The notes below the pieces were generated by a model. It was not told the DNA's origin. It ran no database searches and saw nothing but the letters and a program-made list of their open reading frames with translations. 64,000 nucleotides of DNA from an uncultured Actinomycetota bacterium (lineage in GTDB: Bacteria; Actinomycetota; Actinomycetes; Mycobacteriales; Mycobacteriaceae). The stretch is taken from NCBI GenBank assembly GCA_963787635.1, contig CAWBDP010000009.1:397768-461767 (forward strand). The letters run 5' to 3'. This document shows positions 36,291 through 60,260 of the stretch, piece after piece. The position numbers were made by a program, and so were the translations under genes. How positions within the stretch are numbered: the stretch's first letter is position 1; each line of letters begins with the position of its first letter.

Positions 36291-36847
36291 GATTGGTTGG
36301 CCCATTCGGTGGCCAGCAACCGGCGGGTGTCGCGCAGCAGCTGCGGAAGGACCTTGGAGTCGCCGATAATCGTGATGAAGTTCGCGTCGCCACCCCAGCG
36401 CGGCACCACGTGCACGTGCAGGTGCTCGGCCAGCGAGCCGCCCGCCGAGGTGCCCAGGTTCAGCCCGACATTGAAACCATGCGGCCGCGAGACGTTTTTG
36501 ATGACGCGAATCGCTCTCTGCGTGAACGCCATCAGCTCCACGCTCTCCGGGTCGGTGAGATCCTCGAGTTCGGATACCCGCCGATAGGGCACCACCATCA
36601 GGTGTCCGGGGTTGTACGGGTAGAGGTTCAGCACGGCGTAGACCAGTTCCCCCCGGGCAACCACCAGACCCTCCTCGTCGGACAGCTGCGGGATGTCGGT
36701 GAAAGGCTGCTCAGGGTCTGAGTTTGCCCGCCGCAGCGGCGCCTCGGCCAGGTAACTCATCCGGTAGGGCGTCCACAGGCGCTGCAGATGGTCGGACTCA
36801 CCGACCCCTCTGTCGACGATCGGGTCGTCCCGCTCGTCGCTACCCAT
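36287..36847 (-). CDS. HIT-family Ap4A phosphorylase (Rv2613c-like)
   Basis: [33 protein letters not shown]. Confidence 0.93.
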
Positions 36848-38947: not shown

Positions 38948-39041
38948 GGCGTGCTCTCCAGAAGGTGTCAAGGGTCTCGCAGGGTTATCCAACGGTAGGC
39001 GACCATGCTATCGGGGCGACTGCTCAACGCGGGCCGCAGCC

Positions 39042-42303: not shown

Positions 42304-42645
42304 CTACGACGACTCGACGTTTTTGACCACGGTAAGCATCACCACCGAATCCTCGACCGCGTGCAGCGCATGCCGGTGGGGCGGGATCGTGACGTGGTCG
42401 CCGGCCTTGCCGTCCCACGCGTCGTCGCCGGCAGTCAGCCGCACATGGCCCTGCAGCACCTGCAGGGTGGCCTCGCCCGGGCTCTCGTGTTCGGAAAGCT
42501 CGTACCCGCCGAGCAGTGCCAGCACCGTCTGCCGAAGTTCGTGGGTGTGACCGCCGTGGATGGTGTGCGCGGCCCGCCCGCTGTGCGACTGGTGTGCCTC
42601 GGCCAGTTTCTCGGCGGCTAGGTCGGTCAGTGACGTCGATTCCAT
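42304..42645 (-). CDS. Cupin protein (Rv2619c-like)
   Basis: LSEHESPGEATLQVLQG, IPPHRHALHA. Confidence 0.88.
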   Translation of the reverse strand: MESTSLTDLAAEKLAEAHQSHSGRAAHTIHGGHTHELRQTVLALLGGYELSEHESPGEATLQVLQGHVRLTAGDDAWDGKAGDHVTIPPHRHALHAVEDSVVMLTVVKNVESS

Positions 42646-42682
42646 GACTGTCCTTCGATTTCGAGGTCGGCGGTCTGATCGC

Positions 42683-43108
42683 TCATCCGGTCAATAGAAC
42701 TATCCCCGCCACGAGCAACGCAACTGCCTTGGCCGCCTCCAGACCGACATAGGCGTAATGGCCGCGAGAGCGGGGCGCCTCGAGGCCGGCCAGCACCTGG
42801 TCGGAGCGGCGGTTCAACCGCGGCCTTACGGCGGCCAGCTGGACGGCGAGCGCGGCCAACGCGACCGCGAACGCGACGATCGCACCCACCGGCGGTGGCT
42901 TCACGGCGATAACCACCAGAATGACCGCGGCGAAAGCGATTTCGACGCGGTTGAGCGCACGGAAGACCAGCCGGCCGATACCGAGGCCGACCTGCAGCGT
43001 CACGCTGGGCGCACGAAACTTCAGCGGCGCCTCCAGAAATGAAATCGCCACGACCATGCCCAGCCAGACGAACGTGACAGCGACGGCAATGGCCGCCGCG
43101 GCGCTCAC
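42683..43108 (-). CDS. Conserved membrane protein (Rv2620c-like)
   Basis: WLGMVVAISFLEAPLKFRA; 4 TM helices; start GTG 43108 overlaps the upstream stop. Confidence 0.85.
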   Translation of the reverse strand: MSAAAAIAVAVTFVWLGMVVAISFLEAPLKFRAPSVTLQVGLGIGRLVFRALNRVEIAFAAVILVVIAVKPPPVGAIVAFAVALAALAVQLAAVRPRLNRRSDQVLAGLEAPRSRGHYAYVGLEAAKAVALLVAGIVLLTG

Positions 43109-43773
43109 CGGCGGGCGACTTCGGCGACGTGAGCAAGGCACAGATCCGGTTCGGCCAACGGCTCCAGCCGCTCGACAGTGACCGGCGCGTTCCAGTTTTC
43201 CAACGCACCCTGCATCATGCCCAAGTGGATGGGGCAGACGATCGCGGTACTGGCTTCGGCGACCTCCAAAAACGGGCAATGCCGCAGCCCGACCTGTCTA
43301 CCCTCCGATTCACGGCGCTCGGGTGCGAAGCCAAGCTCGTCGAGCAGCTCCATGAGGTGGTCGATCGATGCCTCGACGCTTGCCGCCGGAATAGCGGCGG
43401 AGCGGGTTGGCAGACTCCGCCCCCAGGCCCGCCCCGCGGCCGCCGCCTTGGCACTCGGGTCGCTGTCAGCGGCAATTCCCATGCTGAGGATCTCGGCGAG
43501 CAGTTGGTACCGCCGTGGCCCGCCGTGATCCATCTCCCGGACAGCCCGAAACATCAGCGGTGGACGGCCCGGACCGCCGCGGTCGGGCTGCACGTGTTCC
43601 ACCCGACCGTCGCGGATCAGGGCCTCGAGGTGGAAACGCACGGTGTTGGGGTGTACGTCGAGTTCTTCGGCGATCGCGGCAATGCTCAGCGGCGCCTCAG
43701 CCGCCCGCAACACCTGCATCACCGCACGCCGGCGCCTGCCGGGTTGTTCTGCTGAACTAGCGATGTCATTCAT
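43105..43773 (-). CDS. HTH transcriptional regulator with SufR-like Cys motif (Rv2621c-like)
   Basis: w[21 protein letters not shown]; C-terminal HCPF-x9-CPIH. Confidence 0.85.
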
Positions 43774-44126
43774 TGCGCCTGCGATTCTTCTCCACTCGGC
43801 AGACCAGCCACCAGCGGGGCGTCGACTCCGAGTGCCCCGACCTTGGCCGCTCCGCCCGGTGAGCCCAGCGGCTCGTCGCGTCCGGGAAGCGTGTCGGTGA
43901 AGAAGGCCTCGTTGTCCGCCTGGTACGGCTGAAGATCGTCGGGAAGATCGTCTTCGTAGTAGATTGCCTCGACCGGGCAGACCGGCTCACAGGCGCCGCA
44001 GTCCACGCATTCGTCGGGGTGAATGTAGAGGGCACGCCCGCCCTCGTAGATGCAGTCGACGGGGCACTCCTCCACGCACGACCGGTCCATCACGTCGACG
44101 CAGGGCTTCCCGATTACGTAGGTCAT
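43770..44126 (-). CDS. fdxA: 7Fe ferredoxin (FdxA type)
   Basis: [37 protein letters not shown]. Confidence 0.92.
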
Positions 44127-44133
44127 GCGCTAG

Positions 44134-44161
44134 AGTTTACACAAAATCATTTGTATAAACT
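44134..44161. promoter_or_regulatory. AT-rich 28-bp inverted repeat operator between divergent fdxA and DUF2249 genes
   Basis: AGTTTACACAAA-ATCA-TTTGTATAAACT, arms match 11/12. Confidence 0.75.
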
Positions 44162-44180
44162 AGCGAGGGCCCGAAAATTG

Positions 44181-44783
44181 TTGGTCGACAACGAACTTGA
44201 CGTCCGAGAGCTGCGCAAACCGGACAAGCACCCGACGATATTCTCGACTTATGCCGCATTGTCGGCCGGCGAATCGTTTGTCCTGATCAACAACCATGAC
44301 CCTAAGCATCTGCATGACGAGTTCGAAACCGACCTGTCCGGCGGCTACGGCTGGGCGTACCTCGAGAAGGGTCCTGCGGTCTGGCGGATCCGGATCACCA
44401 AACACACCACTAACCCACCGCCGAGGATGCTGACCAACACTGCTGCGGCAACCGAACCCAACGCGAGCGGTGCGCTCTGGAAACTGGAAGTCCGTGAGCG
44501 CGACCTGGACTCCAACGTTATCGCGCTGGCACCCGATGGCCGCATCGACGCCCATACCGGAGCCGACGTCGACGTGTTGATCCACGTGCTGTCCGGCAGC
44601 GGCCAGCTGTGCACCGAGAACGGGCTGATCGACCTGGTCCCGGGTGCTCTGCTGTGGCTGCCGAAACACTCGCGCCGAGCGTTCGTCGCCGGCCCGGCCG
44701 GGTTGCGATACCTCACGGTGCACAAGAAGCGTGAGATCCTGCCGCTGATGCCTGCCGCACCCACTGTGCCGCAGGCCTTCTGA
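44181..44783 (+). CDS. DUF2249 + cupin domain protein
   Basis: ELDVREL..KHPTIF..GESFVLINNHDPKHL (DUF2249); HTGADVDVLIHVLSGSG (cupin); TTG start inferred. Confidence 0.8.
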   Translation: MVDNELDVRELRKPDKHPTIFSTYAALSAGESFVLINNHDPKHLHDEFETDLSGGYGWAYLEKGPAVWRIRITKHTTNPPPRMLTNTAAATEPNASGALWKLEVRERDLDSNVIALAPDGRIDAHTGADVDVLIHVLSGSGQLCTENGLIDLVPGALLWLPKHSRRAFVAGPAGLRYLTVHKKREILPLMPAAPTVPQAF

Positions 44784-44903
44784 TGACGCGCCCAGCCGGG
44801 GGTGTCTCGTCGAACCGGCCCGACGACACGGTGCAGGGGCATTGGCTGCTTGCGCGACTTGAGCAGAACGTGACCGGCAGTCTGTAAGAATCCCCCGCTG
44901 CCG

Positions 44904-45284
44904 TCAGTGTGCGTCGATCTCGTCGAAGACCCGCTGGGCGATCCGGAAGGAGCTGTTGGCGTCCGGCAACCCGCAGTAGATCGCGGTCTGCAGCAGGACT
45001 TCCTTGATCTCGTCGCGAGACAACCCGTTGCGCAAGGCCGCCGCGATATGCGCCGAGAGCTCTTCGTCGCGCCCGCGGGCGATCAGCGCGGTCATGGCGA
45101 TCATCGAGCGGCTGCGCCGGTCCAGCCCGGGACGTCCCCACACGGCGCCCCAGGCGAATTCGGTGATCAGCTCTTGGAAGTCGCGGGTGAAGGCGGTGAT
45201 GCGCGCGTCTGCGCGGTCGACGTAGGCCTCGCCCAACACTTCGCGTCGCACGGTTGCGCCGCGGTCGTGGCGGCTACTCTCCAT
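44904..45284 (-). CDS. pcaC: 4-carboxymuconolactone decarboxylase
   Basis: RREVLG..DFQELITEFAWGAVWGRPGLDRRSRS, AIYCGLP; GAGGAGG RBS. Confidence 0.93.
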   Translation of the reverse strand: MESSRHDRGATVRREVLGEAYVDRADARITAFTRDFQELITEFAWGAVWGRPGLDRRSRSMIAMTALIARGRDEELSAHIAAALRNGLSRDEIKEVLLQTAIYCGLPDANSSFRIAQRVFDEIDAH

Positions 45285-45339
45285 GCCCGCCTCCTCCTCT
45301 GGCCACTTCGCGGCCCGCATCGTCACCGGGCGCGCTCAT
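45285..45339 (-). repeat. Single MIRU-like element as the pcaD-pcaC spacer
   Basis: atgagcgcgcccggtgacgatgcgggccgcgaagtggccagaggaggaggcgggc; its ATG overlaps the pcaD TGA and it supplies the pcaC RBS. Confidence 0.7.
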
Positions 45340-46121
45340 CTGTTCTCCCGTCTCTTGAGCTTCAGCAACACATCTGCGACACGGTCGGGCTGCTCGGCCG
45401 GTGCGAGGTGCGCGGCATCGGGCAACTCGATGAACCTGCCACGCGTGACTTTAGCAGCGATAAATCGCAACGAATCCGAAGGCGTGGCAATGTCGTTCGC
45501 ACCGGCGACGGCGACGACCGGAGTGGTGATCTCGCCAAGCCGGTAGCGGGCGTCGAATTCGGCCAACGCCTCGCAGGTGCGGGCATACCCGTCATCGTCC
45601 ACTCGGCGCAACGCGTCGAGCAGCCCCCTGGCGGACCCCGGATCGCGTTCGAAGAACCCCGGACTGAACCACCGTCGCACTGAGAGGGCCACTACTTCAC
45701 CGGTGCCGCCGTTGCGAACTACCTGCGCCCGGGATTTCCAGTCGACCGGGTCGCCTATTCGCGCCGCGGTGCAGATCAGCGCGGCCGACGCGACGCGCTC
45801 CGGATACCCCAGCAGCATCTCGATTCCCACGGCGCCGGCCACTGACATGCCGGCATAGGTGAACCGACACTTGCCGATTTCGTTTTCGACCATCCCAACG
45901 ACGCTGGTGGCGAGATCGTCAATGGTGAACGCGTCACGCGGTCGCGGGCTGGCGCCGTGGCCGGGTAGGTCCCAGCCGATGACGTGATAGGCGCCAGCCA
46001 ACCGTTGGGCGACCGACGACCACAGCGTGGCAACCGAGGTTCCCAGCGCCGGGCCGACGACCAGCGGCGGCAACTCCGGTGCGCCGGCCAGCACCGATCC
46101 GATGATCCGGGGAACACTCAC
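45336..46121 (-). CDS. pcaD: 3-oxoadipate enol-lactone hydrolase
   Basis: ALGTSVATLW, WDLPGHG, GMSVAG nucleophile elbow, AHLAPAEQP; operon context. Confidence 0.88.
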   Translation of the reverse strand: MSVPRIIGSVLAGAPELPPLVVGPALGTSVATLWSSVAQRLAGAYHVIGWDLPGHGASPRPRDAFTIDDLATSVVGMVENEIGKCRFTYAGMSVAGAVGIEMLLGYPERVASAALICTAARIGDPVDWKSRAQVVRNGGTGEVVALSVRRWFSPGFFERDPGSARGLLDALRRVDDDGYARTCEALAEFDARYRLGEITTPVVAVAGANDIATPSDSLRFIAAKVTRGRFIELPDAAHLAPAEQPDRVADVLLKLKRRENR

Positions 46122-47341
46122 GGGTGGTCCTTGACTGCCCGCCGGGCACGCTCCAGGCTCTCGTCGATCAGCGTGTCGACGGCACCGAAATACGTTCCGG
46201 ACGGCGACTTTCCAGCCAGCTCGGCGACGGCTCGCTGCTCGCTGAGCACATCAACGTCGTCGAGGTTATCGGTCATCCGCTGCGGGTGCACCTGCAGTCC
46301 GGCGAGCAGCTCGCCGCACTGGCTGCCGGCGATTACACATCGGCGAGCCAGCGTGCGCAGGGCGTCCCATTCGACGTGCCAGGCGCCGTCGGGGCGTTCG
46401 TCGTTGGCGAGCGCGGCGGCGGTGTGCAACGTTGCGGCCAGTGGCGGCGCGGCAATCGCGGCACGCCGAATCAGGATGGACAGCACTGGATTACGCTTGT
46501 GCGGCATGCTCGACGATCCGCCGCGATCCCCGCCGGCGGGTTCGCTCAGTTCGCCGATCTCCGGGCGGCACAGGGTCACGACGTCCGACGCGATGCGTCC
46601 CCACGCGTCGGTGCATCCGACCAGCGCGTCGGCGACCGCGGTCACCGGTGCGCGCGTGGTATGCCATGGCAGCCGGACAGCCAAACCCAAAGTGGCCGCG
46701 GTGGTTTGCACCAGCTGAGCGGTGATCTGCGCGGGATCGCCCTGACCGCCGACGAATTTGGCCAACTCCATGGTCGCGGCCATGGTTCCGCCCGCTCCGC
46801 CGATCTGGACCGGCGTGCTCAGCCCACGTAGTTGCTGATATGCGTCGACGACTCCGCCCAGCCACGCCGCGGCCTTGGCTCCGAACGTGGTGGGCACGGC
46901 GTGCTGAGTCAGGGTGCGGGCCACCATCGGCGTGCCCCGGTGGGTGTTGGCCAATGCGGACAGCGTCGAAATCTCTTCCACCAATTGGTCTGTCAGCGCG
47001 TCCAGCACGGCGCGGGTGGCCAGCATCAAAGCGGTGTCGAGAACGTCCTGGCTGGTCAGGCCGCGGTGGATCCACCGTCCGATGGTCGCGCGGTCACGCA
47101 GCATTGCGACCACAACGATGACCGGGTTGCCGGCGGCTTCGGACCCGGCTGCGAGCGTCTCACAATCCTGCGGCTTCAGCAGCCGCTCGAGATCAGCGCC
47201 GGTGCACTCGGCCGGTGCCAGTCCGGCAACGGCCAGCGCGTTCAACCAGGCCGACTCCACCGCGACCATCGCGCGCAGCAGCTCCACATCAGTCATGAGT
47301 TCACCGGCGCGCTGGTCGCCCGGCCACAGCAGATTCGTCAT
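46118..47341 (-). CDS. pcaB: 3-carboxy-cis,cis-muconate cycloisomerase
   Basis: HRGLTSQDVLDT, RTLTQHA, GSSSMPHKRNP, ERPDGAWHVEW. Confidence 0.93.
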   Translation of the reverse strand: MTNLLWPGDQRAGELMTDVELLRAMVAVESAWLNALAVAGLAPAECTGADLERLLKPQDCETLAAGSEAAGNPVIVVVAMLRDRATIGRWIHRGLTSQDVLDTALMLATRAVLDALTDQLVEEISTLSALANTHRGTPMVARTLTQHAVPTTFGAKAAAWLGGVVDAYQQLRGLSTPVQIGGAGGTMAATMELAKFVGGQGDPAQITAQLVQTTAATLGLAVRLPWHTTRAPVTAVADALVGCTDAWGRIASDVVTLCRPEIGELSEPAGGDRGGSSSMPHKRNPVLSILIRRAAIAAPPLAATLHTAAALANDERPDGAWHVEWDALRTLARRCVIAGSQCGELLAGLQVHPQRMTDNLDDVDVLSEQRAVAELAGKSPSGTYFGAVDTLIDESLERARRAVKDHP

Positions 47342-47916
47342 CGCCGATCCCCGCCGTAGCTCAGGAAGACGGTCTCGATTTGAGTCCGGCCGCCCTGCAC
47401 GCGGATGTCGAATCGATATCCCGCACGCCCAGAGAGACTTTCGTCCAGACATCTCAGCGTGGCCCGTTGCGCGGCGGTCAGCCCGGACAAGCGGTCGTCT
47501 GCGTCGAGGTCGGCGTCCGGCAGGTAGGCGCGGGTGAACAAGCGGTTCAGCAAGCCGCGCGCGAAGACGGTGATCGCGAAGAACGGGGACCGGCCGGCGG
47601 TCGCCGATCCGGGAGGCAGCGTGGTGAAACTGTACTGACCATTAGCGTCGGTCGCCGATCTGCCCCATCCGGTGAAGGCCGAACCGTCACGCCGCAGTGA
47701 GCCGGCCTGCCGGACGATGTTGCCCTGCGGGTCGGGCTGCCACAGCTCGACGAGGGCGTCCGGTATGCCATGGCCGGCGCCGTCATAGACCGTGCCGAGT
47801 AACCGTACGGCGCACGGGTGATCCTCGTCGACCAACCGACCCCCACCCGTATAGGACAATGCGCAGTCGAAAAACGGCCCCACGGTTTGCCCTGGAGTGC
47901 AGGCGGATTCAGCCAT
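47338..47916 (-). CDS. pcaG: Protocatechuate 3,4-dioxygenase alpha subunit
   Basis: TPGQTVGPF, DALVELWQ, GWGR, VFARGLL..LFTRAY, ETVF. Confidence 0.93.
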   Translation of the reverse strand: MAESACTPGQTVGPFFDCALSYTGGGRLVDEDHPCAVRLLGTVYDGAGHGIPDALVELWQPDPQGNIVRQAGSLRRDGSAFTGWGRSATDANGQYSFTTLPPGSATAGRSPFFAITVFARGLLNRLFTRAYLPDADLDADDRLSGLTAAQRATLRCLDESLSGRAGYRFDIRVQGGRTQIETVFLSYGGDRR

Positions 47917-48679
47917 GATGGCTTTCGGATTCGGTCCAGGTGCGCGCGCTTCCCGCCACCACGATGTCCCACCGGTACCCGGTCGCGTACTCCGCCTCAG
48001 TGAGGTCATGGTCGTAGCCGGCGACCAGCCGTTTGCGGGCAGCGGGGTCGACGATGGATTGGTAGATGGGGTCCAGGTCGAACAAGGGGTCGCGGGGAAA
48101 GTACATCTGGGTGACCAGGCGTTGGGTGAAAGCGGTTCCGAAGACCGAGAAATGGATATGCGCCGGCCGCCAGGCATTGTGGTGATTACGCCAGGGATAC
48201 GGACCCGGCTTGATCGTGAGGAAGCGGTAGGTGCCGTCCGGGCCGGTCAGGCAGCGACCCACTCCGGTGAAGTTCGGATCGAGCGGCGCGGGGTGCTGAT
48301 CGCGCCGGTGGCGGTAGCGCCCGCTGGCATTCGCCTGCCAAATCTCGATCAGCTGACCGGCGACCGGCCTGCCCGCCTCGTCGAGCAGCCGCCCGGTCAG
48401 GATGATCCGCTCCCCGATCGGCTCACCGGAATGACCGGCAGTCAGGTCGGCATCGAGGGGGTCGACGTCCTGCGGGCCGAAGCACGGCGCGCAGAGTTCG
48501 ACGTCCTCGGGATCCACGCGGAAATGCGGCGATGCCGGATGGCGCAGGACACTGCTGCGGTACGGCGGATAGTCCAGCCGCGGCTCAGTCGCGTCGTGGG
48601 CCCCGCAGTCGGCGGCGATGCGGGCCATTTCTGCGGTGATTTCGCTTTGGGACGCGACGCGCTGGGGTGCGGCCTCCAT
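47909..48679 (-). CDS. pcaH: Protocatechuate 3,4-dioxygenase beta subunit
   Basis: YPPYRSS..RHP, EIWQANASGRY, KPGPYPWRNH.NAWRPAHIH, TQMYF. Confidence 0.95.
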   Translation of the reverse strand: MEAAPQRVASQSEITAEMARIAADCGAHDATEPRLDYPPYRSSVLRHPASPHFRVDPEDVELCAPCFGPQDVDPLDADLTAGHSGEPIGERIILTGRLLDEAGRPVAGQLIEIWQANASGRYRHRRDQHPAPLDPNFTGVGRCLTGPDGTYRFLTIKPGPYPWRNHHNAWRPAHIHFSVFGTAFTQRLVTQMYFPRDPLFDLDPIYQSIVDPAARKRLVAGYDHDLTEAEYATGYRWDIVVAGSARTWTESESHHG

Positions 48680-48730
48680 GACCAGTGAAGCTAACCACAC
48701 AACCGGTCGGCCTAAACCTGGTTGGCCGCA

Positions 48731-49216
48731 CTAGATGGTGCGCAGCAGCGCCGTTCTGCCCTTGACCCGGAGCTTTTGCATGGTGGAACCGCGCAGCTGC
48801 TCGATGCGCGCAGCCATCTTGTCGCCCAGCACCTGCAGTTCCTCGTCGGTGATCTGCACCGGGGGCGGCACCGGGATCATGTCACGTTCCTCTTCGTCGG
48901 CGTGGGCTTCCAGGACGGTCTTGAAGGATTCCCATTCTTGCTCGTAGTTCGGATCGGTCGGCCGGGTGCGCAGCAGCACGGCAAGCTGATCGGTCACCTG
49001 ACGATGCTCGGCGTGCGCGATCGCGATTAGTCGGCTGGCCGCCGCGAGCGCCGGGTAGTAGAGGTCATCCTCGACGCGGAAATGAATGTCCAGCTCGACC
49101 AGCATCTCGTCGAGGTAGGCCTGCCGTTCGGCCGTACCCACCGGCGTCTCGCTGACCTTTCGACCCAGCCCCTTGAGTACCTTGTGGTGCTCTTGCAATA
49201 CCGTGTAGGCGTTCAT
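48731..49216 (-). CDS. Hemerythrin-like di-iron protein (Rv2633c ortholog)
   Basis: MNAY.VL..HH, HFRVEDDLYYPAL, HAEH, HADEEE; closely matches recalled Rv2633c. Confidence 0.9.
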   Translation of the reverse strand: MNAYTVLQEHHKVLKGLGRKVSETPVGTAERQAYLDEMLVELDIHFRVEDDLYYPALAAASRLIAIAHAEHRQVTDQLAVLLRTRPTDPNYEQEWESFKTVLEAHADEEERDMIPVPPPVQITDEELQVLGDKMAARIEQLRGSTMQKLRVKGRTALLRTI

Positions 49217-50187
49217 TTGGGCGACCTTCTCCCCCGCTTATTGTCCGGATGTAGCAAATTCCTTGTGTCGCCGCGCAACTCGATCATGCCGTCGCGGATA
49301 CGGGTTTGATAACACGGCAGCGAAGCCGCTGACGGGCCACGCAGCACCTCGCCGGACTCGACGTCGAAGCGGGAGCCGTGCCAAGGGCACACGATGCGGC
49401 TACGATCGACCCAGCCGTCGGCCATCGGTGCGCCCATGTGCGGGCAGTACTCGCCGAACGCCGACACCTGACCGTCGCCGATGCGGCACAGCACCAGTCC
49501 CACGCCGTCGACTTCAACCTGTTGGGGCTTGCCGTCCCGCAACGACTCCAAAGCCAGCACCGGTGTCCAACTTTGGCTGCGCAGTCGCTGACCGGACTGG
49601 TCGGTACCGATGCCCGATTCGAACACCAAGGCACCACCCATGTAGCTGCTTCCGACGGTGATGCCGTACCCGAGCGCGCTGGTCGCGATCCCTCGAACGT
49701 GGCGGCCGCGATGGCGATCCCACCACGACAGGATGTAGAGACCCGTCGCGAACATGTTCAGCAAACCGTGCATCAGCCCGATGCGACGGTCTTCTTCATG
49801 GGTGTGCTGCCAATCGGTTACCCCGGTGACCGCTGAGCCCAGGTTCGCCAGAATTCCCAGTCCGAGGGCACGCCGGGCAAATCGCGAGGCGTCCAGGACT
49901 TCGGAAGCCGGTCGGCCCGGCAACACGCTCAGCGCGTCCAGGGCCACGGTCGTTCCAATGGCTCCACTGGTGAACGAGGCCAGCGGCGGGTGCACCGGAT
50001 GACCGAGCCACACACCATTCAGCACGTTGGTAACGCGGTCACGCGCGCCGCCCAGCGCATTGAACACCATGCCGAGGAAGTGTTCGAACCGGTAGCTCGG
50101 CCGGTCCAGCCACTCTTGCCGCCCGATAACCGACAATGCGCGCGTCCCGACCTTATGCACCTGGTATGCCGACGACTGCTGAACCAT
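49213..50187 (-). CDS. DUF2231-like membrane domain + Rieske [2Fe-2S] protein
   Basis: WLGHPVHPP, TGVTDW, GLMHG; Rieske CPHMG..CPWHGSRFD; stop overlaps the hemerythrin ATG. Confidence 0.85.
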   Translation of the reverse strand: MVQQSSAYQVHKVGTRALSVIGRQEWLDRPSYRFEHFLGMVFNALGGARDRVTNVLNGVWLGHPVHPPLASFTSGAIGTTVALDALSVLPGRPASEVLDASRFARRALGLGILANLGSAVTGVTDWQHTHEEDRRIGLMHGLLNMFATGLYILSWWDRHRGRHVRGIATSALGYGITVGSSYMGGALVFESGIGTDQSGQRLRSQSWTPVLALESLRDGKPQQVEVDGVGLVLCRIGDGQVSAFGEYCPHMGAPMADGWVDRSRIVCPWHGSRFDVESGEVLRGPSAASLPCYQTRIRDGMIELRGDTRNLLHPDNKRGRRSPK

Positions 50188-50388
50188 GGGCACGAGTCCT
50201 TCCCTCGAGTGCGTGGTCACGCGACGATATCTTCAGACACAACCAGACCACCGTAACGCGGGCGCGAAACCCGCCACGCCGGCCGGTCGTATTGACCAAG
50301 ACGTCAGCCCGAGGCATTCTCTAACTAGCGGAGTTGCTCTCTGTATAGCAGACAACCCGCCGACCGGGGGTCTGAAGTGGAGGTCGCG

Positions 50389-51753
50389 ATGATCGATCAC
50401 CGCAGCGTCTTCGACAACGTCCGGCGCGGCATGATTCCCGCGCACATCTACAACGACAACGCCATCTTCGAACTGGAAAAAGAGCGACTTTTCAACCGCG
50501 CCTGGACGTTCGTCGCGCACGAATCGGAGATCCCGCAAGACGGCGACTACGTGGTACGCCGGGTGCTCGACGATTCGTTCATCATCACGCGCGACTCGAA
50601 TGGCGATGTACGCGCTTTATTCAATATGTGCCTGCACCGCGGAATGCAGGTCTGTCGCGCAGAGATGGGCAACGCCTCCAACTTCCGCTGCCCCTACCAC
50701 GGCTGGACGTACCGCAATGACGGCCGGCTCACCGGCCTTCCGTTCCACCGCGAGGCCTACGGCGGTGACGGCGGGTTCGCCAAGGACGGCCTGGCGCTGC
50801 TGCCGGCGCCGAACCTGGCCAGCTACAACGGCCTGATTTTCGTCAACCTGGACCCCAACGCCCAACCGCTGGACAACTTCCTCGGCGACTTCCGGTTCTA
50901 TCTGGACTTCTACACCAAGCAGAGCCACCACGGTCTGGAAGTCCGCGGCCCGCAGCGCTGGCGGATCAAGGCGAACTGGAAGATCGGCGCCGAGAATTTC
51001 GCCGGCGACATGTACCACACCCCGCACACGCACGCGTCGATCGTCGAGATCGGATTGTTCCGCGAGCCCAAGGCTCAGAAGCGGAAGGACGGCGCCACCT
51101 ATTGGGCGCACAGCGGCGGCGGAACCACCTACAAACTCCCGCCGGGCGGCTTCGAACAACGCATGCGCTACGTCGGATATCCCGACGAGATGATCGCCCG
51201 CGTCAAAGAGGTATGGACACCGCAGCAGCAGCAACTGGTGGGCGAGGACGGGTTCATGATCTCGGCCGCCTCGTGCTTCCCGAATCTGAGTTTCGTGCAC
51301 AACTGGCCCAAGGTGATCGCGACGACAGGCGACGACGTGTTGCCGTTCATCTCGATTCGGCTCTGGCAGCCGGTCAGCGCGAACGAAACCGAGGTGTGCT
51401 CGTGGTTTGCGGTGGACGCCGGCGCACCGCCGGAGTTCAAGAGAAATTCCTACCGCGCCTACCTGATGTGCTTCGGATCGACGGGAATGTTCGAACAGGA
51501 CGACGTGGAGAACTGGGTGTCGCTGACCAACACCGCCGGCGGTTCGATGGCGCGCCGGCTCTTGCTGAACAGCCGGATGGGTCTGCTCTCCGACGACCGG
51601 CCGGTCGTCGACACGCTGCCCGCCAACGCGTTTCACGGGCCGGGACGCGCCCAGGTCGGTTACAACGAGCACAACCAGCGCGCACTGCTCAAGCTGTGGG
51701 CCGATCACCTCGAGATACCGCCGGCCGTCTCGCGCACCGAGGCGCCGGCATGA
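50389..51753 (+). CDS. phtAa: Ring-hydroxylating dioxygenase alpha subunit, phthalate 3,4-dioxygenase type
   Basis: Rieske CLHRG..CPYHGW; ENFAGDMYHTPHTH; FEQDDVEN; recalled similarity to actinobacterial PhtAa/PadAa/OphA1. Confidence 0.82.
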   Translation: MIDHRSVFDNVRRGMIPAHIYNDNAIFELEKERLFNRAWTFVAHESEIPQDGDYVVRRVLDDSFIITRDSNGDVRALFNMCLHRGMQVCRAEMGNASNFRCPYHGWTYRNDGRLTGLPFHREAYGGDGGFAKDGLALLPAPNLASYNGLIFVNLDPNAQPLDNFLGDFRFYLDFYTKQSHHGLEVRGPQRWRIKANWKIGAENFAGDMYHTPHTHASIVEIGLFREPKAQKRKDGATYWAHSGGGTTYKLPPGGFEQRMRYVGYPDEMIARVKEVWTPQQQQLVGEDGFMISAASCFPNLSFVHNWPKVIATTGDDVLPFISIRLWQPVSANETEVCSWFAVDAGAPPEFKRNSYRAYLMCFGSTGMFEQDDVENWVSLTNTAGGSMARRLLLNSRMGLLSDDRPVVDTLPANAFHGPGRAQVGYNEHNQRALLKLWADHLEIPPAVSRTEAPA

Positions 51754-52286
51754 TACCGACCGAACAAGAGAAACCACTGCCGTTCAATGACTCTCGGCAC
51801 CTCCAGGCACATCAGTTTCTGGTCGACGAGGCCTACCTGCTCGATGCGCAGCACTACGAGGCGTGGCTGGACACCCTGACCGACGACGTCCACTACCTGA
51901 TGCCGGTGCGAGTCACCACCGCACGCGGCGCGGGATTCGACACCTCGCCGGGGATGTCGCACTTCGACGAGGACAGATACGCGTTGACCCGCCGCGTTGC
52001 CCGGTTCCGCACCGAACATGCCTGGACCGAGGATCCGCCGTCACGGCTGCGCCATTTCATCACCAACGTGCGCACGTTCGGCTGCACCGATGACGCACAT
52101 CTCGTGGTGGAATCGGCCGAGCTGCTGTTCCGCAGTCGCGGCGACGTCAACGAGGCCGCGCTGGTGTCCTGCGGCCGCCGGGACGTGCTGCGCCGGTGCG
52201 GCGGTCAGCACTGGAAACTTGCGCGCCGCACGGTGCTGCTCGACGAATCGGTGTTGCGGATGCAGAATTTGGCAGTTTTTCTATGA
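51750..52286 (+). CDS. phtAb: Ring-hydroxylating dioxygenase beta subunit
   Basis: FLVDEAYLLD..W, WTEDPPSRLRHFITNV, LARR.VLLD; ATGA overlap. Confidence 0.85.
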   Translation: MIPTEQEKPLPFNDSRHLQAHQFLVDEAYLLDAQHYEAWLDTLTDDVHYLMPVRVTTARGAGFDTSPGMSHFDEDRYALTRRVARFRTEHAWTEDPPSRLRHFITNVRTFGCTDDAHLVVESAELLFRSRGDVNEAALVSCGRRDVLRRCGGQHWKLARRTVLLDESVLRMQNLAVFL

Positions 52287-52558
52287 ACTCTCCTATAAAC
52301 GACGACCTCACCGGACTGCTGCGGGGCGCAGTAGGCGAACCCCTCGCGATCGCAAATGAATTCACCGAAGTCGTGGTGCTCCGGGTGGACACCCGCAACG
52401 GGTCGCGACTGCTCGTCAGCGCACCCAAGTCGGGGCGCTGGATCAGCCTGGACGCCCTCGAGCTGGAGGCATTGACCTGGCAGAACACCCGCACGCTTGC
52501 CGCGATCGTCGGCAACGTCGACGCTCCGCTGCTTCCCGACGACCAGGAACAGCCATGA
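52283..52558 (+). CDS. Small conserved protein of pht operons (orf0/PhtU-like)
   Basis: IANEF..VDTRNGSRLL..WISLDALELEALTWQN; coupled between the beta subunit and the dehydrogenase. Confidence 0.72.
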   Translation: MNSPINDDLTGLLRGAVGEPLAIANEFTEVVVLRVDTRNGSRLLVSAPKSGRWISLDALELEALTWQNTRTLAAIVGNVDAPLLPDDQEQP

Positions 52559-53349
52559 CCGGATGGCTGGACGGCAAGCGGGCCCTGGTCGTGGGCGCCG
52601 GCTCCGGGATCGGCCGGGCCGTCGTCGACGCGTTTCGCGCCGAAGGCGCCAACGTTGCTGTGCTGGAACGCGATCCAGCCAAATGCGACGTGCTTCGACA
52701 TGAGGTGCCCGATGTTCCGGTGATCGAGGGCGACGCCGTCACCCGCGAGGCGAACGATCGTGCGGTGGCTGCCGCGGTCGAGGCCTTCGGGGGGCTGGAC
52801 ACACTGGTCAACTGCGTGGGGATTTTCGACTTCTACCGAGGCGTGGCCGACATCGACGCCAACGACTTGTCGGCCGCTTTCGATGAGATGTTCCGCACCA
52901 ACGTGCTCAGCCACCTGCAATCGGTCAAAGCCGCACTGCCGGCGCTGCAGACCCAGACCGGGTCCTCGATCGTGCTCGCCGAGTCGGCTTCGTCGTTTTA
53001 TGCCGGACGCGGCGGCGCGCTGTATGTCTCGTCGAAATTCGCGGTGCGCGGTCTGGTCGCCACCCTTGCCTACGAATTGGCGCCGGGGATCCGGGTCAAC
53101 GGCGTAGCACCGGGCGGCACAGTGCACACCGACCTGCGCGGCCCGGCCACCCTCGGGCTGGACACCGTCCGACTGGACGACACCCCGGACCGGGCAACCG
53201 ATCTTGCCCGCCGCGCACCGCTGAACGTCGCACTCTCGCCCGAGGACCACGCGTGGAGTTTCGTGTTCTTCGCCTCGGATCGTTCGCGCGGCATCACCGC
53301 CGGCAGCGTACATCCCGACGGCGGATTCGGGCTGGGAAAACCGACATGA
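52555..53349 (+). CDS. phtB: cis-dihydrodiol dehydrogenase (SDR)
   Basis: GAGSGIG, NCVGIFD, YVSSK, RVNGVAPGG..TDLRG. Confidence 0.82.
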   Translation: MTGWLDGKRALVVGAGSGIGRAVVDAFRAEGANVAVLERDPAKCDVLRHEVPDVPVIEGDAVTREANDRAVAAAVEAFGGLDTLVNCVGIFDFYRGVADIDANDLSAAFDEMFRTNVLSHLQSVKAALPALQTQTGSSIVLAESASSFYAGRGGALYVSSKFAVRGLVATLAYELAPGIRVNGVAPGGTVHTDLRGPATLGLDTVRLDDTPDRATDLARRAPLNVALSPEDHAWSFVFFASDRSRGITAGSVHPDGGFGLGKPT

Positions 53350-54056
53350 GCCTGCACGACGAACGCAGCCTGGTCGCGTTGGCGTGCCGGGTCGCGGCTG
53401 CCCGCGGGCTGGTCGACGGCATCCTCGGCCACGTGAGCCTGCGGGTCGACGACGATCATCTGCTGATCCGGTGCCGCAGTGACACCGACACCGGCCTGGC
53501 GTTCACCCGAGCGACCGACATCCGGCTCGTCCGCTTCGACGGAACCGCGGGCGCTGCAGGCGAACTCGACGGATATCGCGTTCCCAACGAACTTGCCATC
53601 CATGCCGAAACCCTGCTCGCGAACCACGAGCACCGGGCCGTCGCACACCTGCATCCGCCGGCCGTCGTCGCCGCTGATCTCGCCGGTATCACGATCCGGT
53701 CGATCTATGGGGCCTACGACATCCCGGGTGCGTGGCTGGCGCGCGGCGGTGTGCCGGTCTACGAACGTGCTGTGCTGATCCGAAATTCGCGGCTGGGCAA
53801 GGAAATGGTGGCCGCCATGCGGGGCGCACCGGTTGTCATCTGCCGTGGCCATGGAATAACCAGCGCCGCGGCCACCGTGCCGCAGGCGGTGCTGCAGGCG
53901 ATCAGCCTCAATGCGCTCGCCGACATGTCGTTGCGGGTGCGCTCAGCCGGCGGCACGCTGCGCGACATCGACGACCGGGACTGGGACGACCTGCCGATGC
54001 CCGAATTCCTCGCCGACGCGGCCTGGCGACACGAGATTGCCCGGCTTGGCGAATGA
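53346..54056 (+). CDS. phtC: Class II aldolase-fold protein, probable 3,4-dihydroxyphthalate decarboxylase
   Basis: GHVSLR, ELAIH, AHLHP, RGHG; PhtC/PadC/OphC belong to this fold; operon context. Confidence 0.72.
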   Translation: MSLHDERSLVALACRVAAARGLVDGILGHVSLRVDDDHLLIRCRSDTDTGLAFTRATDIRLVRFDGTAGAAGELDGYRVPNELAIHAETLLANHEHRAVAHLHPPAVVAADLAGITIRSIYGAYDIPGAWLARGGVPVYERAVLIRNSRLGKEMVAAMRGAPVVICRGHGITSAAATVPQAVLQAISLNALADMSLRVRSAGGTLRDIDDRDWDDLPMPEFLADAAWRHEIARLGE

Positions 54057-54070
54057 CCCGGCCGAGCCAA

Positions 54071-54853
54071 TCAGAGTTGGTCGCCGATCTCCTTGGCGGC
54101 CTGGATGAGTACCGCTGCGACGGCGGCATATTGCGACCTGGTCAGCCGATGCTGGGGAGCCGCGGCGTTCAGCGCCAGCCGAAGCCCCGGCGCCCGCGTT
54201 GGTATCGGTGCGGCGACCGACGCGACGCCTTCCTCGCTCTCCTCCCGGTTGACGGCATATCCGCGTTCACGGACACGAGAAAGCTCGGCCACCAAGGCGG
54301 TACGGCTGCCGATCGAGCGCGCCGTGGTGCGTTCCAGGTCTTCACCGGGCAGCAGCGCAAGCAATTCCGGTTGCGACAACTGGCCCAGCATGGCCTTACC
54401 GGTGGAAGTGCAATGCGCCGGCATCGTCAGCCCCAGCCGCGAGGCCACTCGGACGGCGCTTGGACCCTCGACCGCGGCGATGAACCGTACCGCGGCACCA
54501 TCGAGCATCCCCAGATGAATTGTTTCCCGCAGCTGTTCGCCGACTCGGCGCATGACCGGCAGAGCGGTCGCCTGGATATCGGTGCGGCCGAAGATCGCAA
54601 ACGCCACGCCGGTCAGCGCCGGGCCGGGCCGGTAGACCTTGGACGCCGGGTCTTGCCGGACAAACCCGCGGTAGGCCAGCATCGCCAGCAGCCGGTGCGC
54701 GGTGGATGACGCCACGCCCAGATAGCGGGTGGCCTCGCTCAACCGGATCTCGGACCGATCGCCCAACAGCAGCAGCAGCTTCAATGCATTATCGACCGAC
54801 TCGATCGGATACTGCGGCGCAGATGAATCGGGCCGCTGCGCCTTCTTCTGCAT
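54071..54853 (-). CDS. phtR: IclR family regulator (PhtR-like)
   Basis: SVDNALKLL..STAHRLLAML; HCTSTGKAML; RGYA..EESEEGV; convergent with the pht operon. Confidence 0.75.
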   Translation of the reverse strand: MQKKAQRPDSSAPQYPIESVDNALKLLLLLGDRSEIRLSEATRYLGVASSTAHRLLAMLAYRGFVRQDPASKVYRPGPALTGVAFAIFGRTDIQATALPVMRRVGEQLRETIHLGMLDGAAVRFIAAVEGPSAVRVASRLGLTMPAHCTSTGKAMLGQLSQPELLALLPGEDLERTTARSIGSRTALVAELSRVRERGYAVNREESEEGVASVAAPIPTRAPGLRLALNAAAPQHRLTRSQYAAVAAVLIQAAKEIGDQL

Positions 54854-55027
54854 GACACCGACGGTACCTGCGACCACCCCCGAATATTGACGCCTGTTGC
54901 GCGGCAACCTTTCCGGGGACACTCCACCTGTCCCGGTCAACGGGAGCGTGCCTCGAGAGTGGCCGGTCCCGTGGTACCCGCGCGGCCCTGGCCGATCGGG
55001 TCCAGCCGGATCGTGCATCCTTGACCC

Positions 55028-55678
55028 ATGAGCCTGGTGTCCCTGCTGCAATCCGTGCCGCCGGTGGTGGTCTATGTGATGGTAGGAGCCGTGGTCGGAG
55101 TCGAGAGTCTGGGTGTCCCGCTTCCCGGCGAGATCGTGCTCGTCACCGCCGCACTGATGTCGTCGCGTCACGAGCTTGCCGTCAACCCGATCGGAGTGGG
55201 CGCGGCCGCGGTCATCGGAGCCGTGATCGGTGACTCGATCGGTTACACACTGGGTCGACGGCTCGGGATGTCGCTCTTCGACTGGCTCGGCCGCCGGCTT
55301 CCGCGACATTTCGGTCCCGGTCATGTCGCGCTCGCCGAGAAAATATTCACCCGCTGGGGATCCCATGCCGTGTTCTTCGGACGGTTCATCGCGCTGCTGC
55401 GGATCTTCGCCGGGCCGCTCGCCGGCGCATTGAAGATGCGGTATCCGCGATTTCTCGCCGCCAATGTGGCCGGCGCGATCTGCTGGGCAGGTGGCACCGC
55501 GGCGCTGGTGTATTACGCGGGACTCGCGGCCGAGCGCTGGCTGGAGCGTTTCTCGTGGATCGCCTTGGTCGTCGCGGTCGTCGGCGGCGTGACTGCGGCG
55601 ATCCTGCTGCGTAAACGCACCGCCCGCGCGATCGCCGAGCTCGAGGCCGAGCAGGAGGCCGGCAAAACTACCGCCTGA
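55028..55678 (+). CDS. dedA: DedA family membrane protein (Rv2637-like)
   Basis: ESLGVPLPGE, GDSIGY..G, FFGRFIALLRIF..AG. Confidence 0.93.
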   Translation: MSLVSLLQSVPPVVVYVMVGAVVGVESLGVPLPGEIVLVTAALMSSRHELAVNPIGVGAAAVIGAVIGDSIGYTLGRRLGMSLFDWLGRRLPRHFGPGHVALAEKIFTRWGSHAVFFGRFIALLRIFAGPLAGALKMRYPRFLAANVAGAICWAGGTAALVYYAGLAAERWLERFSWIALVVAVVGGVTAAILLRKRTARAIAELEAEQEAGKTTA

Positions 55679-55785: not shown

Positions 55786-55877
55786 GTCTTCAGATATGTA
55801 GGACGGTCATCCATCTCGTCATCAGGCGCGTAGGACAGCAACATTCAGTCTTCAGACACGTAGGACGGTCATCCATC
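55786..55877. repeat. 30-bp direct repeat pair (62-bp period) upstream of the anti-anti-sigma gene
   Basis: gtcttcagatatgtaggacggtcatccatc (55786-55815) and gtcttcagacacgtaggacggtcatccatc (55848-55877); partial gtaggac between them. Confidence 0.85.
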
Positions 55878-55912
55878 GCGGCGCGGTTGCGCCAGTCGAT
55901 TAGGAGTGCACC

Positions 55913-57207: not shown

Positions 57208-58566
57208 CTAGTCGTGAGGAGATCGTCGAGGTCTTCGACACGCTCGACGCTGTCCTGGACCAGGCCTTGGCGCTGACTTTCGACGCGTTGACCACCCCCG
57301 AACGGATGGCATTGCTGGACCGCTGCGAAACGGTGCGCCGCCAGCTGCCGGCTGTCGAGCACCCGCTGATCAACCAGATCGCGGCAACGCTCCAGCGACG
57401 AGGAACTCGGCGGCAAGCTGGCCCGCGCGCTGGCCGAGCGACTGCGCATCACTCGCGGTGAAGCCAGCCGCCGGATCGGCGAAGCCGCAGAACTCGGTGA
57501 TCGCCACGCGCTGACCGGCCAACCGCTGGGGCCAGTGCTACGGCCACTGCCGCTGCCCAGCGCGCCGGGACAATCGGGTCGGCCCACATCACGGTGATCC
57601 GGCGGTTTCTGCGACAGCAGCCCGGCTGGGTTGATGTCGCCACCGCGGCAACAAGCCGAAGCGCTGCTGGCCGGCCAAGCCGAGAAATCCGGCCCGACCA
57701 GCTCGCCCAGCTAGCCGACAAGCTCACCGACTGCCTCAACCCCGACGGCGAACTACACCGAGGAAGACCGCGCCCGCCGACGTGGTCTGGTCTTGGGCAA
57801 ACAACAAGACGACGGCATGAGCCCACTGCGCGGGTGGCTGACCCCTGAGCTGCGCGCCAGCCTGGAGGCGGTGCTGGCCAAGCTGGCCGCACCCGGCATG
57901 GCCAACCCCGACGACAAGATGCCGGCGGTGGATGAAGAGCCATCGAGGAAGCCGTCCAGCGCGATACCCGCTCACCGGCCCAACGCAATCACGACGGCCT
58001 ACTGGCTGCGCTGCGGGCTGTGCTGGCCAGCGGAAAACTCGGACAGCACAACGGATTACCGGCCACCATCATCGTGTCGACCACGCTCAAGGACCTGGAA
58101 TCCGCCGCCGGTCAAGGCACTCACCGCTTGCGGCAGCCTGCTGCCGATGTCCGATGTCATCCGGCTGGCCAGCCATGCGCATCATTACCTCGCGATCTTC
58201 GACAACGGCAAAGCCCTGGCGCTGTATCACACGAAACGGCTGGCCTCCCCTGCACAGCGAATCATGCTCTACGCCAAAGACCGTGGCTGCACCAAACCCG
58301 GCTGCCCCGCCCCCGCCTACTACTGCCAAGCCCACCATGTTCGGGGCTGGCAAGCCACCCAGTGCACCGACATCGACGACCTCGCCCTGGCCTGCGGCAT
58401 CGACAACCGCCTCGCCGAAAACGGCTGGACCACTCGTAAGAACGCTCAAGGTGAAACCGAGTGGATCCCACCGCCACATCTGGACCACGGCCAACCCCGC
58501 ACCAACAACTTCCATCACCCCGAAAAACTCCTCCGCGAAAACGACGAGGATCCCGGCAGCGACTGA
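57198..58566 (+). mobile_element. REP13E12-family element (DUF222 + HNH), multiply frameshifted
   Basis: MGSTSREEI..LTTPE..HPLINQ; in shifted frames [71 protein letters not shown]. Confidence 0.85.
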
Positions 58567-59475: not shown

Positions 59476-60036
59476 CTAACCCTTGCCGAGGATGGCGTCG
59501 CGAGCACGATCGGCCATCGCGGCGAACGGGCCGGCCAACACGTTGGCCTTCGCGGACTCCACACCCGGGTGCGGTCTGGTGGGCGCTGTGGATTCGGCGA
59601 ACTTGACGGCGCGACCCATCCGCTTCAGCTGGTCGCCGCTCAGCTCGTCCTGAAGTTTGGCGAATTCCTCCTGCTCCTCGTGCTCGGCATGCTCGACGAC
59701 GGAATCCCGAAGCTTCTTCAGCTTTTTGGTGAACTTGTCGTCGTCGAGGTCAAGTTTCTCCAACTCCGCAAGCGCCTTTTTGGCCTCGCTCTCCTCCTCG
59801 AGCCGCTTGTCGACGACCTGATCACCGTCGGGTATCTCTTTTCTGGCCCGCGGATGGACGATTTCCTCTTCGGCGGTTTCGTGGACCGCCAAGAGCCGCC
59901 GCAACTCGAGGAATGCCTTCTCGCGTTCCTTGCCCGACACCGACAGCGCCTCGTCGAACAGCGATTTGATCCGCTCGTGCTGGCTGGTGAGGAATTCGAC
60001 CACATCGGCGGGTGACTTGACATCGGCATCGGCCAT
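59476..60036 (-). CDS. Hemerythrin domain protein
   Basis: QHERIK, VHETAEEEIVHP, HAEHEEQEEF, APTRPHP. Confidence 0.88.
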   Translation of the reverse strand: MADADVKSPADVVEFLTSQHERIKSLFDEALSVSGKEREKAFLELRRLLAVHETAEEEIVHPRARKEIPDGDQVVDKRLEEESEAKKALAELEKLDLDDDKFTKKLKKLRDSVVEHAEHEEQEEFAKLQDELSGDQLKRMGRAVKFAESTAPTRPHPGVESAKANVLAGPFAAMADRARDAILGKG

Positions 60037-60090
60037 GGCTTGACTCCTGTGTCGTCGTGCGCGGGGCTGATGACGCACTGCCGAGGCGGC

Positions 60091-60115
60091 TACCCAACCT
60101 CGATAATCGTCAAAC
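60091..60115 (-). promoter_or_regulatory. SigF-type promoter for hemerythrin-udgX
   Basis: GTTT-N16-GGGTA on the minus strand, 55 bp upstream of ATG 60036. Confidence 0.65.
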
Positions 60116-60260
60116 GCGCGGGGGTCGGTCCCCATTAAAGTTCCAGACTCTCCGGCAACGAAATCAGGTCCTGACCGGGGCTTTCAGGAACCCCAATCAG
60201 TCAAGCGCGCAACACGTTTCACGATCGCAAAGCGAGCTGGCAGACCGACCGGGCCAGACA

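Follow-up and report, generated by a model that had tools for sequence, protein, structure and literature searches.

A chromosomal pht–pca locus of slow-growing mycobacteria whose enzymes may still act on phthalate with electrons from unlinked carriers

What lies between positions 44904 and 54853 of this 64,000-nt stretch of DNA from an uncultured mycobacterial genome? In this window (the term denotes the whole 64,000-nt stretch, part of an assembly of 5.03 Mb in 18 contigs that is 92.4% complete), we mapped the genes from GC3 coding frames, matches to Pfam and NCBIfam models and inspected start codons (Table 1). The locus comprises a rightward phthalate operon (phtAa-phtAb-orf-phtB-phtC), followed by a convergent gene for an IclR-family regulator, and a leftward unit for the protocatechuate branch of the beta-ketoadipate pathway (pcaH-pcaG-pcaB-pcaD-pcaC). 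Genes for the ferredoxin and reductase that would serve the phthalate dioxygenase, phtAc and phtAd, are absent, the arrangement is conserved widely, and it is under purifying selection. Taking the sequence evidence together, we lean towards the view that this is a chromosomal pht–pca locus of slow-growing mycobacteria, whose enzymes would still act on phthalate with electrons drawn from unlinked carriers.

The original prediction, made from the letters of the window, had listed the catabolic genes, and its list and coordinates proved correct throughout in the Pfam and NCBIfam searches. It had also described the pht genes as divergent from pcaHGBDC. This is true of their orientation, but the two units are not direct neighbours: a gene for a hemerythrin-like di-iron protein and another for a membrane protein with a DUF2231 and a Rieske domain intervene, and these two head the leftward unit. 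Packing is tight on both strands. Start and stop codons overlap by 4 bp at every junction of the pht operon (Aa, Ab, orf, B and C), the coordinates of pcaB and pcaD imply an overlap of the same length, pcaG begins with an ATG at 47916 that lies within the end of pcaH, and the pcaB ATG at 47341 overlaps the pcaG stop (ATGA). The hemerythrin gene is located 30 nt upstream of pcaH on the same strand and overlaps the DUF2231-Rieske gene by 4 bp.

The six pht products are collinear with the Pad proteins of Rhodococcus jostii RHA1 (pad cluster of plasmid pRHL2) at 65–79% identity. Because this operon was studied experimentally, and because the same order recurs in 80 other genomes, the cluster is, on comparative grounds, far beyond a chance set of open reading frames (ORFs). 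Which dioxygenase does it encode? The top solved structure for the alpha subunit is chain A of PDB 9jp5, "Phthalate 3,4-dioxygenase alpha subunit" (818 bits, E 2.4e-245), compared with 376 bits for Rhodococcus naphthalene dioxygenase, 241 for BphA and 214 for HcaE. Moreover, the protein falls far under the NCBIfam equivalog cut-offs for HcaE (249.7 against 830) and BenA (177 against 781). An identity as HcaE or BphA, which had been considered as the competing assignment, is therefore rejected. In the alpha-subunit tree, it belongs to a strongly supported 22-row clade that includes RHA1 PadAa and does not cluster with another dioxygenase family; the tree was computed in quick mode only, has very long outgroup branches and gives no answer on loss versus gain of the carrier genes. 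PhtAa shares 77% of its residues with PadAa, and the predicted decarboxylase of the phthalate 3,4-dioxygenase route is likewise supported, with PhtC well above its equivalog cut-off. Hence, the assignment of these genes to the actinobacterial type V phthalate 3,4-dioxygenase pathway (Pht/Pad/Oph) is supported at the level of sequence and family models. Genes of the window do pass two generic NCBIfam PRK models, one for HcaF and one for HcaB. Our assignment corrects misleading automatic names in the annotated RHA1 and plasmid records, namely '3-phenylpropionate dioxygenase', 'hcaB' and 'class II aldolase'.

Between phtAb and phtB lies an ORF of 91 codons. Each pht/pad operon that we examined, across the range from Rhodococcus to Mycobacterium, has a conserved version of it, in which 26 positions never vary, and 79 of the 80 related loci described below contain it. 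It has no match in Pfam or NCBIfam. An AlphaFold2 model built with 43 orthologues (mean pLDDT 73) consists of a helix, four strands and two helices, and a Foldseek search of the PDB gave no significant match to this fold (best E 0.15, with a weak likeness to PUR repeats). This ORF is a constant member of pht/pad operons.

Table 1. Features of the pht–pca locus in window coordinates, with identity to R. jostii RHA1 counterparts and median pairwise dN/dS
Feature	Coordinates	Strand	Evidence	RHA1 counterpart (identity)	Median dN/dS
pcaC, 4-carboxymuconolactone decarboxylase	44904-45326	-	Pfam CMD; NCBIfam TIGR02425 161.6 (cut-off 155.7)		
pcaD, 3-oxoadipate enol-lactonase	45336-46121	-	alpha/beta hydrolase; N-terminal half of bifunctional PcaDC 267.6 bits; TIGR02427 205.1		
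pcaB, 3-carboxy-cis,cis-muconate cycloisomerase	46118-47341	-	Pfam Lyase_1; TIGR02426 325.8 (best match)		
pcaG, protocatechuate 3,4-dioxygenase alpha subunit	47338-47916	-	TIGR02423 155.8 (cut-off 126.25)		
pcaH, protocatechuate 3,4-dioxygenase beta subunit	47909-48700	-	TIGR02422 349.7 (cut-off 296.4); Pfam Dioxygenase_C, PCDO_beta_N		
Hemerythrin-like di-iron protein (Rv2633c / M. kansasii HLP class)	48731-49216	-	Pfam Hemerythrin; 255 bits to M. kansasii HLP (PDB 6q09)		
Membrane protein, DUF2231 and C-terminal Rieske [2Fe-2S] domain	49213-50220	-	Pfam DUF2231, Rieske		
Putative phtAa promoter and operator	50292-50352	+	most conserved non-coding columns, 81 upstream regions		
phtAa, phthalate 3,4-dioxygenase alpha (large) subunit, type V Rieske oxygenase	50377-51753	+	Pfam Rieske, Ring_hydroxyl_A	PadAa (77%)	0.13
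phtAb, beta (small) subunit	51750-52286	+	Pfam Ring_hydroxyl_B	PadAb (75%)	0.15
91-aa ORF of actinobacterial pht/pad operons	52283-52558	+		hypothetical protein (65%)	0.22
phtB, phthalate cis-3,4-dihydrodiol dehydrogenase (short-chain dehydrogenase/reductase, SDR)	52555-53349	+	Pfam adh_short; NCBIfam PRK06200 378 (cut-off 330)	PadB (79%)	0.19
phtC, 3,4-dihydroxyphthalate decarboxylase (class II aldolase fold)	53346-54056	+	NCBIfam NF053537 DhpthDcsPhtC equivalog 349.7 (cut-off 200)	PadC (68%)	0.18
phtR, IclR-family regulator, convergent with phtC	54071-54853	-	Pfam HTH_IclR, IclR_C	PadR (68%)	0.15

How common is this arrangement? With one genome scanned per species, we retrieved 80 related loci, labelled either Mycobacterium or uncultured Actinomycetota; several metagenome-assembled genomes (MAGs) with the latter label sit among Mycobacterium sequences in the tree. 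Their alpha subunits are 81–87% identical to that of the window. Aa-Ab-orf is found in all 80 loci, B and C in all except a few that are cut by a contig end, and most have the IclR gene (on the minus strand), DedA and STAS genes downstream and pcaH/pcaB upstream. Among the carriers of the locus are M. colombiense, M. celatum, M. kyorinense, M. fragae, M. triplex and M. intermedium, as well as M. asiaticum, M. europaeum, M. paraffinicum, M. mantenii, M. heidelbergense and M. bohemicum. Across the genus, 109 of the 300 genomes sampled encode the PhtC equivalog.

The locus had been called an island in the original prediction, a term that we do not retain. Its GC content (63–68% across the region) is the same as that of the flanks, there are no tRNA genes in the window and no repeats bracketing the region, and the same locus with its IclR-DedA-STAS flanks recurs in most of the 80 loci; recent acquisition as an island was rejected on these grounds. 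The frame is one of core genes, with NUDIX, PimA-type GT4, acyltransferase, HIT and ThrS genes upstream and DedA and STAS genes downstream, and the upstream gene order is, we presume, that of Rv2609c-Rv2614c in M. tuberculosis. Five other complete genomes of the genus were compared, and in four of them a distance of 8.6–27.5 kb separates thrS from dedA. Because content varies between these syntenic anchors, we view the thrS–dedA interval as a variable slot in a conserved frame.

Some loci depart from this plan. A compact, single-strand unit without carrier genes, in which phtR precedes phtAaAb-orf-B-C-pcaH-G-B-pcaL, is present in a 4.4-Mb genome (L095, G136:C1:2248877-2268876), ~270 kb away from that genome's thrS–dedA region. 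Another locus (L096, G057:C1:378409-398408) has phtAa-Ab-orf followed by homologues of PadAc (71%) and PadAd (53%) and then three tandem phtC copies, with no phtB detected in between; copies 2 and 3 match only positions 86–231 of the PhtC model, its C-terminal part. In two further loci (L093 and L094, in G259 and G232), genes that pass the PhtC model and are 60% identical to PhtC of the window lie beside a Rieske oxygenase 41% identical to PhtAa. These may represent a related pathway for another substrate.

Is the locus maintained or decaying? Pairwise Nei–Gojobori comparisons of the window with ~75–80 orthologues gave median dN/dS values of 0.13–0.22 for the five pht genes (Table 1), as low as for the flanking dedA (0.14) and below the flanking STAS gene (0.37), albeit with dS near saturation and species pairs that are not independent. 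Among pairs of carrier-less Aa sequences (n = 3,335), median omega was 0.123 (90th percentile 0.153), about equal to the 0.083–0.106 of carrier-bearing pairs. Ten metal-site residues of PhtAa are invariant in 85 orthologues: the Rieske ligands C85, H87, C105 and H108, and in addition E206, D211, H214, H219, D375 and D376. For each gene, 71–78 of the ~80 orthologues are free of stops and frameshifts, and some of the incomplete ones are contig-end cuts. Low dN/dS, invariant metal ligands, translational coupling and an operator-like palindrome shared with RHA1 all argue against decay. The fresh point of our analysis is that the carrier-less variant is widespread and, judging from these substitution patterns, selectively maintained.

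Where could electrons for PhtAaAb come from? The phtB stop codon overlaps the phtC ATG (ATGA, 53346–53349), leaving no room for phtAc and phtAd between the two genes. Anywhere in the assembly, there is no match to RHA1 PadAc at E<=1e-5 and none to PadAd above 45% identity. The best PadAd homologue, at 44.7% identity, is an FdR-type reductase on another contig (C2:18506-19747), encoded directly after tuf and an SDR gene, a position that we take to be that of the M. tuberculosis FdR gene Rv0688. Two adjacent ferredoxin–reductase pairs lie on contig C7, and at least 12 small PadAc-like ferredoxins (26–41% identity) are scattered across the genome, mostly on C8; these are taken to be of the [3Fe-4S] type. 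The window itself also encodes an FdxA-type ferredoxin at 43770–44129 (NCBIfam FdxA_Actino 176.7, cut-off 125). Carrier genes of type V oxygenases are often unlinked and shared among several oxygenases, and these enzymes use [3Fe-4S] ferredoxins (PMC2358900). As for uptake and ester cleavage, searches of the genome with the PatA-type binding protein of RHA1 and with the hydrolase encoded beside it found no homologue, and the transporter ATPase gave generic ABC matches only (35–43%). The 80 related loci likewise yielded no orthologue of PadAc, PadAd, PatA or the Pat hydrolase.

A putative promoter and operator precede phtAa. On the plus strand upstream of phtAa, a −35-like hexamer TTGACC (50292–50297) is followed by the site CTCTAACTAGCGGAG (50319–50333) and by the palindrome TCTGTATAGCAGA (50340–50352), which ends 24 nt before the phtAa start. 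The hexamer and the palindrome represent the strongest non-coding conservation in the 81 upstream regions compared. In RHA1, TCTGCATAGCAGA is found ~80 nt upstream of padAa, with a second copy at the padR start, and a Mycobacterium plasmid carries TCTGTCTAGCAGA. The bare pattern TCTG-N5-CAGA is not rare, occurring twice in the window against 0.73 occurrences expected. A scan of 44700–55100 with a sigma-70 consensus yielded no promoter, and the two terminator-like sites in that interval are both inside genes. The palindrome is probably the element via which PhtR controls expression.

In the protocatechuate branch, PcaH, PcaG and PcaC are above their NCBIfam equivalog cut-offs. PcaD and PcaC jointly span the model of the bifunctional PcaDC protein end to end and are separated by one in-frame stop (45336–45338). 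Since a stop is found at the same junction in five relatives (L004, L007, L008, L010 and L029), several others align there in two pieces, and the fused form occurs in one genome only (G136), we consider the split natural rather than an assembly error. On the same grounds, we discarded the idea that a nonsense mutation has disrupted a former pcaL gene. As originally predicted, pcaIJ and pcaF lie outside the window: the sole member of the pcaI/scoA family in the genome is a ScoA-ScoB-type ORF on contig C8, which scores above the cut-offs of the pcaI/pcaJ subfamilies, and all thiolases stay under the pcaF cut-off.

Together, this suggests a route in which PhtAaAb, a type V Rieske dioxygenase, would convert phthalate and O2 to the cis-3,4-dihydrodiol, PhtB would oxidise this product to 3,4-dihydroxyphthalate, and PhtC would decarboxylate the latter to protocatechuate. 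Ring opening by PcaHG, followed by PcaB, PcaC and PcaD, would then lead to beta-ketoadipate, with the last steps possibly falling to the ScoAB-type CoA-transferase encoded on C8 and to one of the genome's many thiolases. Electrons could be delivered to PhtAaAb by the FdR-type reductase on C2 together with one of the at least 12 small PhtAc-like ferredoxins. The suggestion that the organism may use phthalate is weaker than the assignment of the pathway genes, with phtAc/phtAd, a Pat transporter and an esterase missing. The further idea of plasticiser breakdown was overstated, because plasticiser esters need an esterase and there is none at the locus.

Several points weigh against a working phthalate pathway with borrowed carriers. 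Not only are phtAc and phtAd absent from the cluster and from all 80 related loci, but there is also neither a Pat-type transporter nor an esterase at the locus, and the best ferredoxin and reductase homologues, encoded on other contigs, reach only 41% and 45% identity. For PcaB and PcaD, the expected models are the best matches, but the scores are under the equivalog cut-offs (325.8 against 355.75 for PcaB; 205.1 against 255.85 for PcaD with TIGR02427), the genome holds no pcaF equivalog (best thiolase 356 bits, cut-off 597), and the reservations on dS and on the independence of species pairs given above apply to the selection argument. Finally, Kweon et al. (2015), who described pht genes without phtAc/phtAd together with a reduced pca set in M. 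avium 104, M. avium subsp. paratuberculosis K-10 and Mycobacterium sp. JDM601, judged that arrangement 'broken' and unable to hydroxylate phthalate (PMC4342237). Following their interpretation, the locus would be a decaying relic, a 'broken operon' surviving from ancestors that lived by degrading aromatics, with an oxygenase that became inert upon loss of phtAc/phtAd. The missing carrier, transporter and esterase genes would be in line with this, as would the further reduction of pca in many relatives, most loci having no pcaD/pcaC homologue beside pcaB. Decay, however, is hard to reconcile with dN/dS values as low as those of dedA across ~75–80 species, with an omega about equal to that of carrier-bearing lineages, with the small number of disrupted orthologues, or with metal ligands, overlapping start/stop junctions and a putative operator that have all been preserved. 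We therefore regard a relic as rather unlikely. Precisely because the variant is widespread and selectively maintained, function with borrowed carriers is the likelier explanation.

Selection could, of course, act on the same chemistry with another natural substrate, an ortho-dicarboxylated or related aromatic acid, phthalate being a side substrate at best. The locus is conserved in species that are not known as pollutant degraders, opportunistic pathogens included, it has no phthalate-specific uptake genes, and the family does diversify, as seen in the 60%-identical PhtC-like genes beside a 41%-identical oxygenase. Set against this are the 77% identity of PhtAa to PadAa within the same strongly supported clade of the quick tree, a PhtC that passes a curated equivalog model, and a putative operator in common with the RHA1 pad promoter, so that we give this alternative only a small chance. 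Still more improbable is a third idea, in which the divergent DUF2231-Rieske membrane protein has replaced PhtAc as the electron donor of PhtAaAb. Its Rieske domain does find its best matches among ferredoxins of Rieske ring-hydroxylating oxygenases (AndAb 50.8 bits, and HcaC; all under cut-offs) and is closer to these than to bc1 or b6f subunits. In ~60 of the 80 loci, the Rieske–hemerythrin pair lies between pcaH and phtAa, with the Rieske gene head-to-head with phtAa, and 65 of 299 other genomes of the genus encode both the Rieske protein and PhtC. However, the same count includes 13 genomes with the Rieske protein only and 43 (of 108 with PhtC) with PhtC only, besides 178 with neither, and co-occurrence of this kind is confounded by shared ancestry. 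The Rieske protein is missing from at least 17 carrier-less pht loci, and a second Rieske–hemerythrin pair, 75% and 78% identical and again with a 4-bp overlap, is found on contig C6 (C6:1391-2832, plus strand) with no pht or pca genes nearby. Furthermore, type V oxygenases use [3Fe-4S] ferredoxins (PMC2358900), and the Rieske protein is always coupled to a hemerythrin of the nitric oxide (NO)-reactive hemerythrin-like protein (HLP) class (PMC8913304), which points to a separate redox or NO module. A borrowed housekeeping FdR of the P450 type with a ferredoxin is far more likely as donor than the Rieske membrane protein. If true, the latter would link a soluble ring-hydroxylating dioxygenase with the redox pool of the membrane, a route undescribed for Rieske oxygenases.

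In our reading, the Rieske–hemerythrin pair is a redox module of its own that shares the slot by chance, and the hemerythrin is probably outside the catabolic pathway. The M. kansasii HLP was published as an orthologue of Rv2633c (PMC6993866) and has been described as an NO peroxidase. The original prediction had put the M. tuberculosis DosR block (Rv2623-2631) and PE_PGRS46 at the corresponding site; this may hold, and the kinship of the hemerythrin with the Rv2633c orthologue speaks for it indirectly. According to published abstracts, the HLP class is reported only from mycobacteria that cause respiratory disease; it is nevertheless present in the source genome and in many environmental MAGs. 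At E<=1e-10, the hemerythrin was not found in five other complete genomes of the genus. A third gene with a hemerythrin domain lies downstream of the locus (59476–60183, minus strand).

Other features of the window surround the locus. Beside pcaC (42304–44783) are genes for a cupin (42304–42690), a helix-turn-helix regulator (43105–43773), the FdxA-type ferredoxin and a divergent DUF2249 protein (44019–44783). Downstream, two 33-nt copies that are 91% identical and 62 nt apart occupy intergenic sequence at 55786–55880 (plus strand), immediately ahead of the gene at 55913 for the STAS protein, an anti-sigma-factor antagonist, and could constitute a duplicated regulatory site. A fragment of DUF222, a domain of the REP13E12/HNH-endonuclease-associated family, follows at 57793–58566 (plus strand). 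Upstream, thrS (36840–39007, minus strand) is split over two frames that overlap at 37802–37976. As thrS is essential, this is probably an indel error of the assembly rather than a true pseudogene, and other frameshifts in the source genome should be treated with equal caution.

What does a maintained, carrier-less locus imply? It is widespread in non-tuberculous mycobacteria, including the opportunistic pathogens M. colombiense, M. celatum, M. kyorinense and M. triplex, and the purifying selection acting on it challenges the published view of a broken remnant. If functional, the locus would allow these mycobacteria to feed on phthalate, or on a close analogue, in soil and water, and would give a clear-cut example of a Rieske oxygenase reliant on electron carriers from unlinked genes.

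Compared to known systems, the closest likeness is with the pad operon of RHA1 (on pRHL1/pRHL2, and equivalent to oph of Rhodococcus sp. DK17). Both share the order Aa-Ab-small orf-B-...-C, an IclR regulator and a TCTG(C/T)ATAGCAGA palindrome upstream of the alpha-subunit gene. In RHA1, however, padAc (a 64-aa ferredoxin) and padAd (a reductase) are inserted between padB and padC, where the genes of the window overlap, and patABCD-type transporter and hydrolase genes adjoin the operon, whereas the window has none. The regulator gene is divergent at the 5′ end in RHA1 and convergent at the 3′ end in the window, and the RHA1 operon is borne on a plasmid, in contrast to the chromosomal operon described here with its adjoining pca genes. 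Within the Mycobacteriaceae, the pht cluster of Mycolicibacterium vanbaalenii PYR-1 (phtRAaAbBAcAd), compared by its description, encodes an oxygenase of this type V family along with a regulator of the IclR family; it includes phtAc and phtAd, which also serve NidAB and NidA3B3 (PMC2358900), while the window has neither. The HcaEFCBD (3-phenylpropionate) and BphA (biphenyl) dioxygenase systems resemble the locus in combining a two-subunit Rieske oxygenase with an SDR dihydrodiol dehydrogenase, but the window operon is devoid of a Rieske ferredoxin (HcaC) and of HcaD. This leaves the three genomes of Kweon et al. (2015), from non-degraders of polycyclic aromatic hydrocarbons, with which the window has in common phtAaAb without phtAc/phtAd and a pca cluster without pcaIJ and pcaF. 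They are reported to have lost pcaL, whereas the window keeps both of its activities as separate pcaD and pcaC genes, and where that study inferred a loss of function, the wider sample analysed here reveals strong purifying selection. The cluster of the window is thus not a new kind of system, but another member of the carrier-less variant of the phthalate pathway described in 2015.

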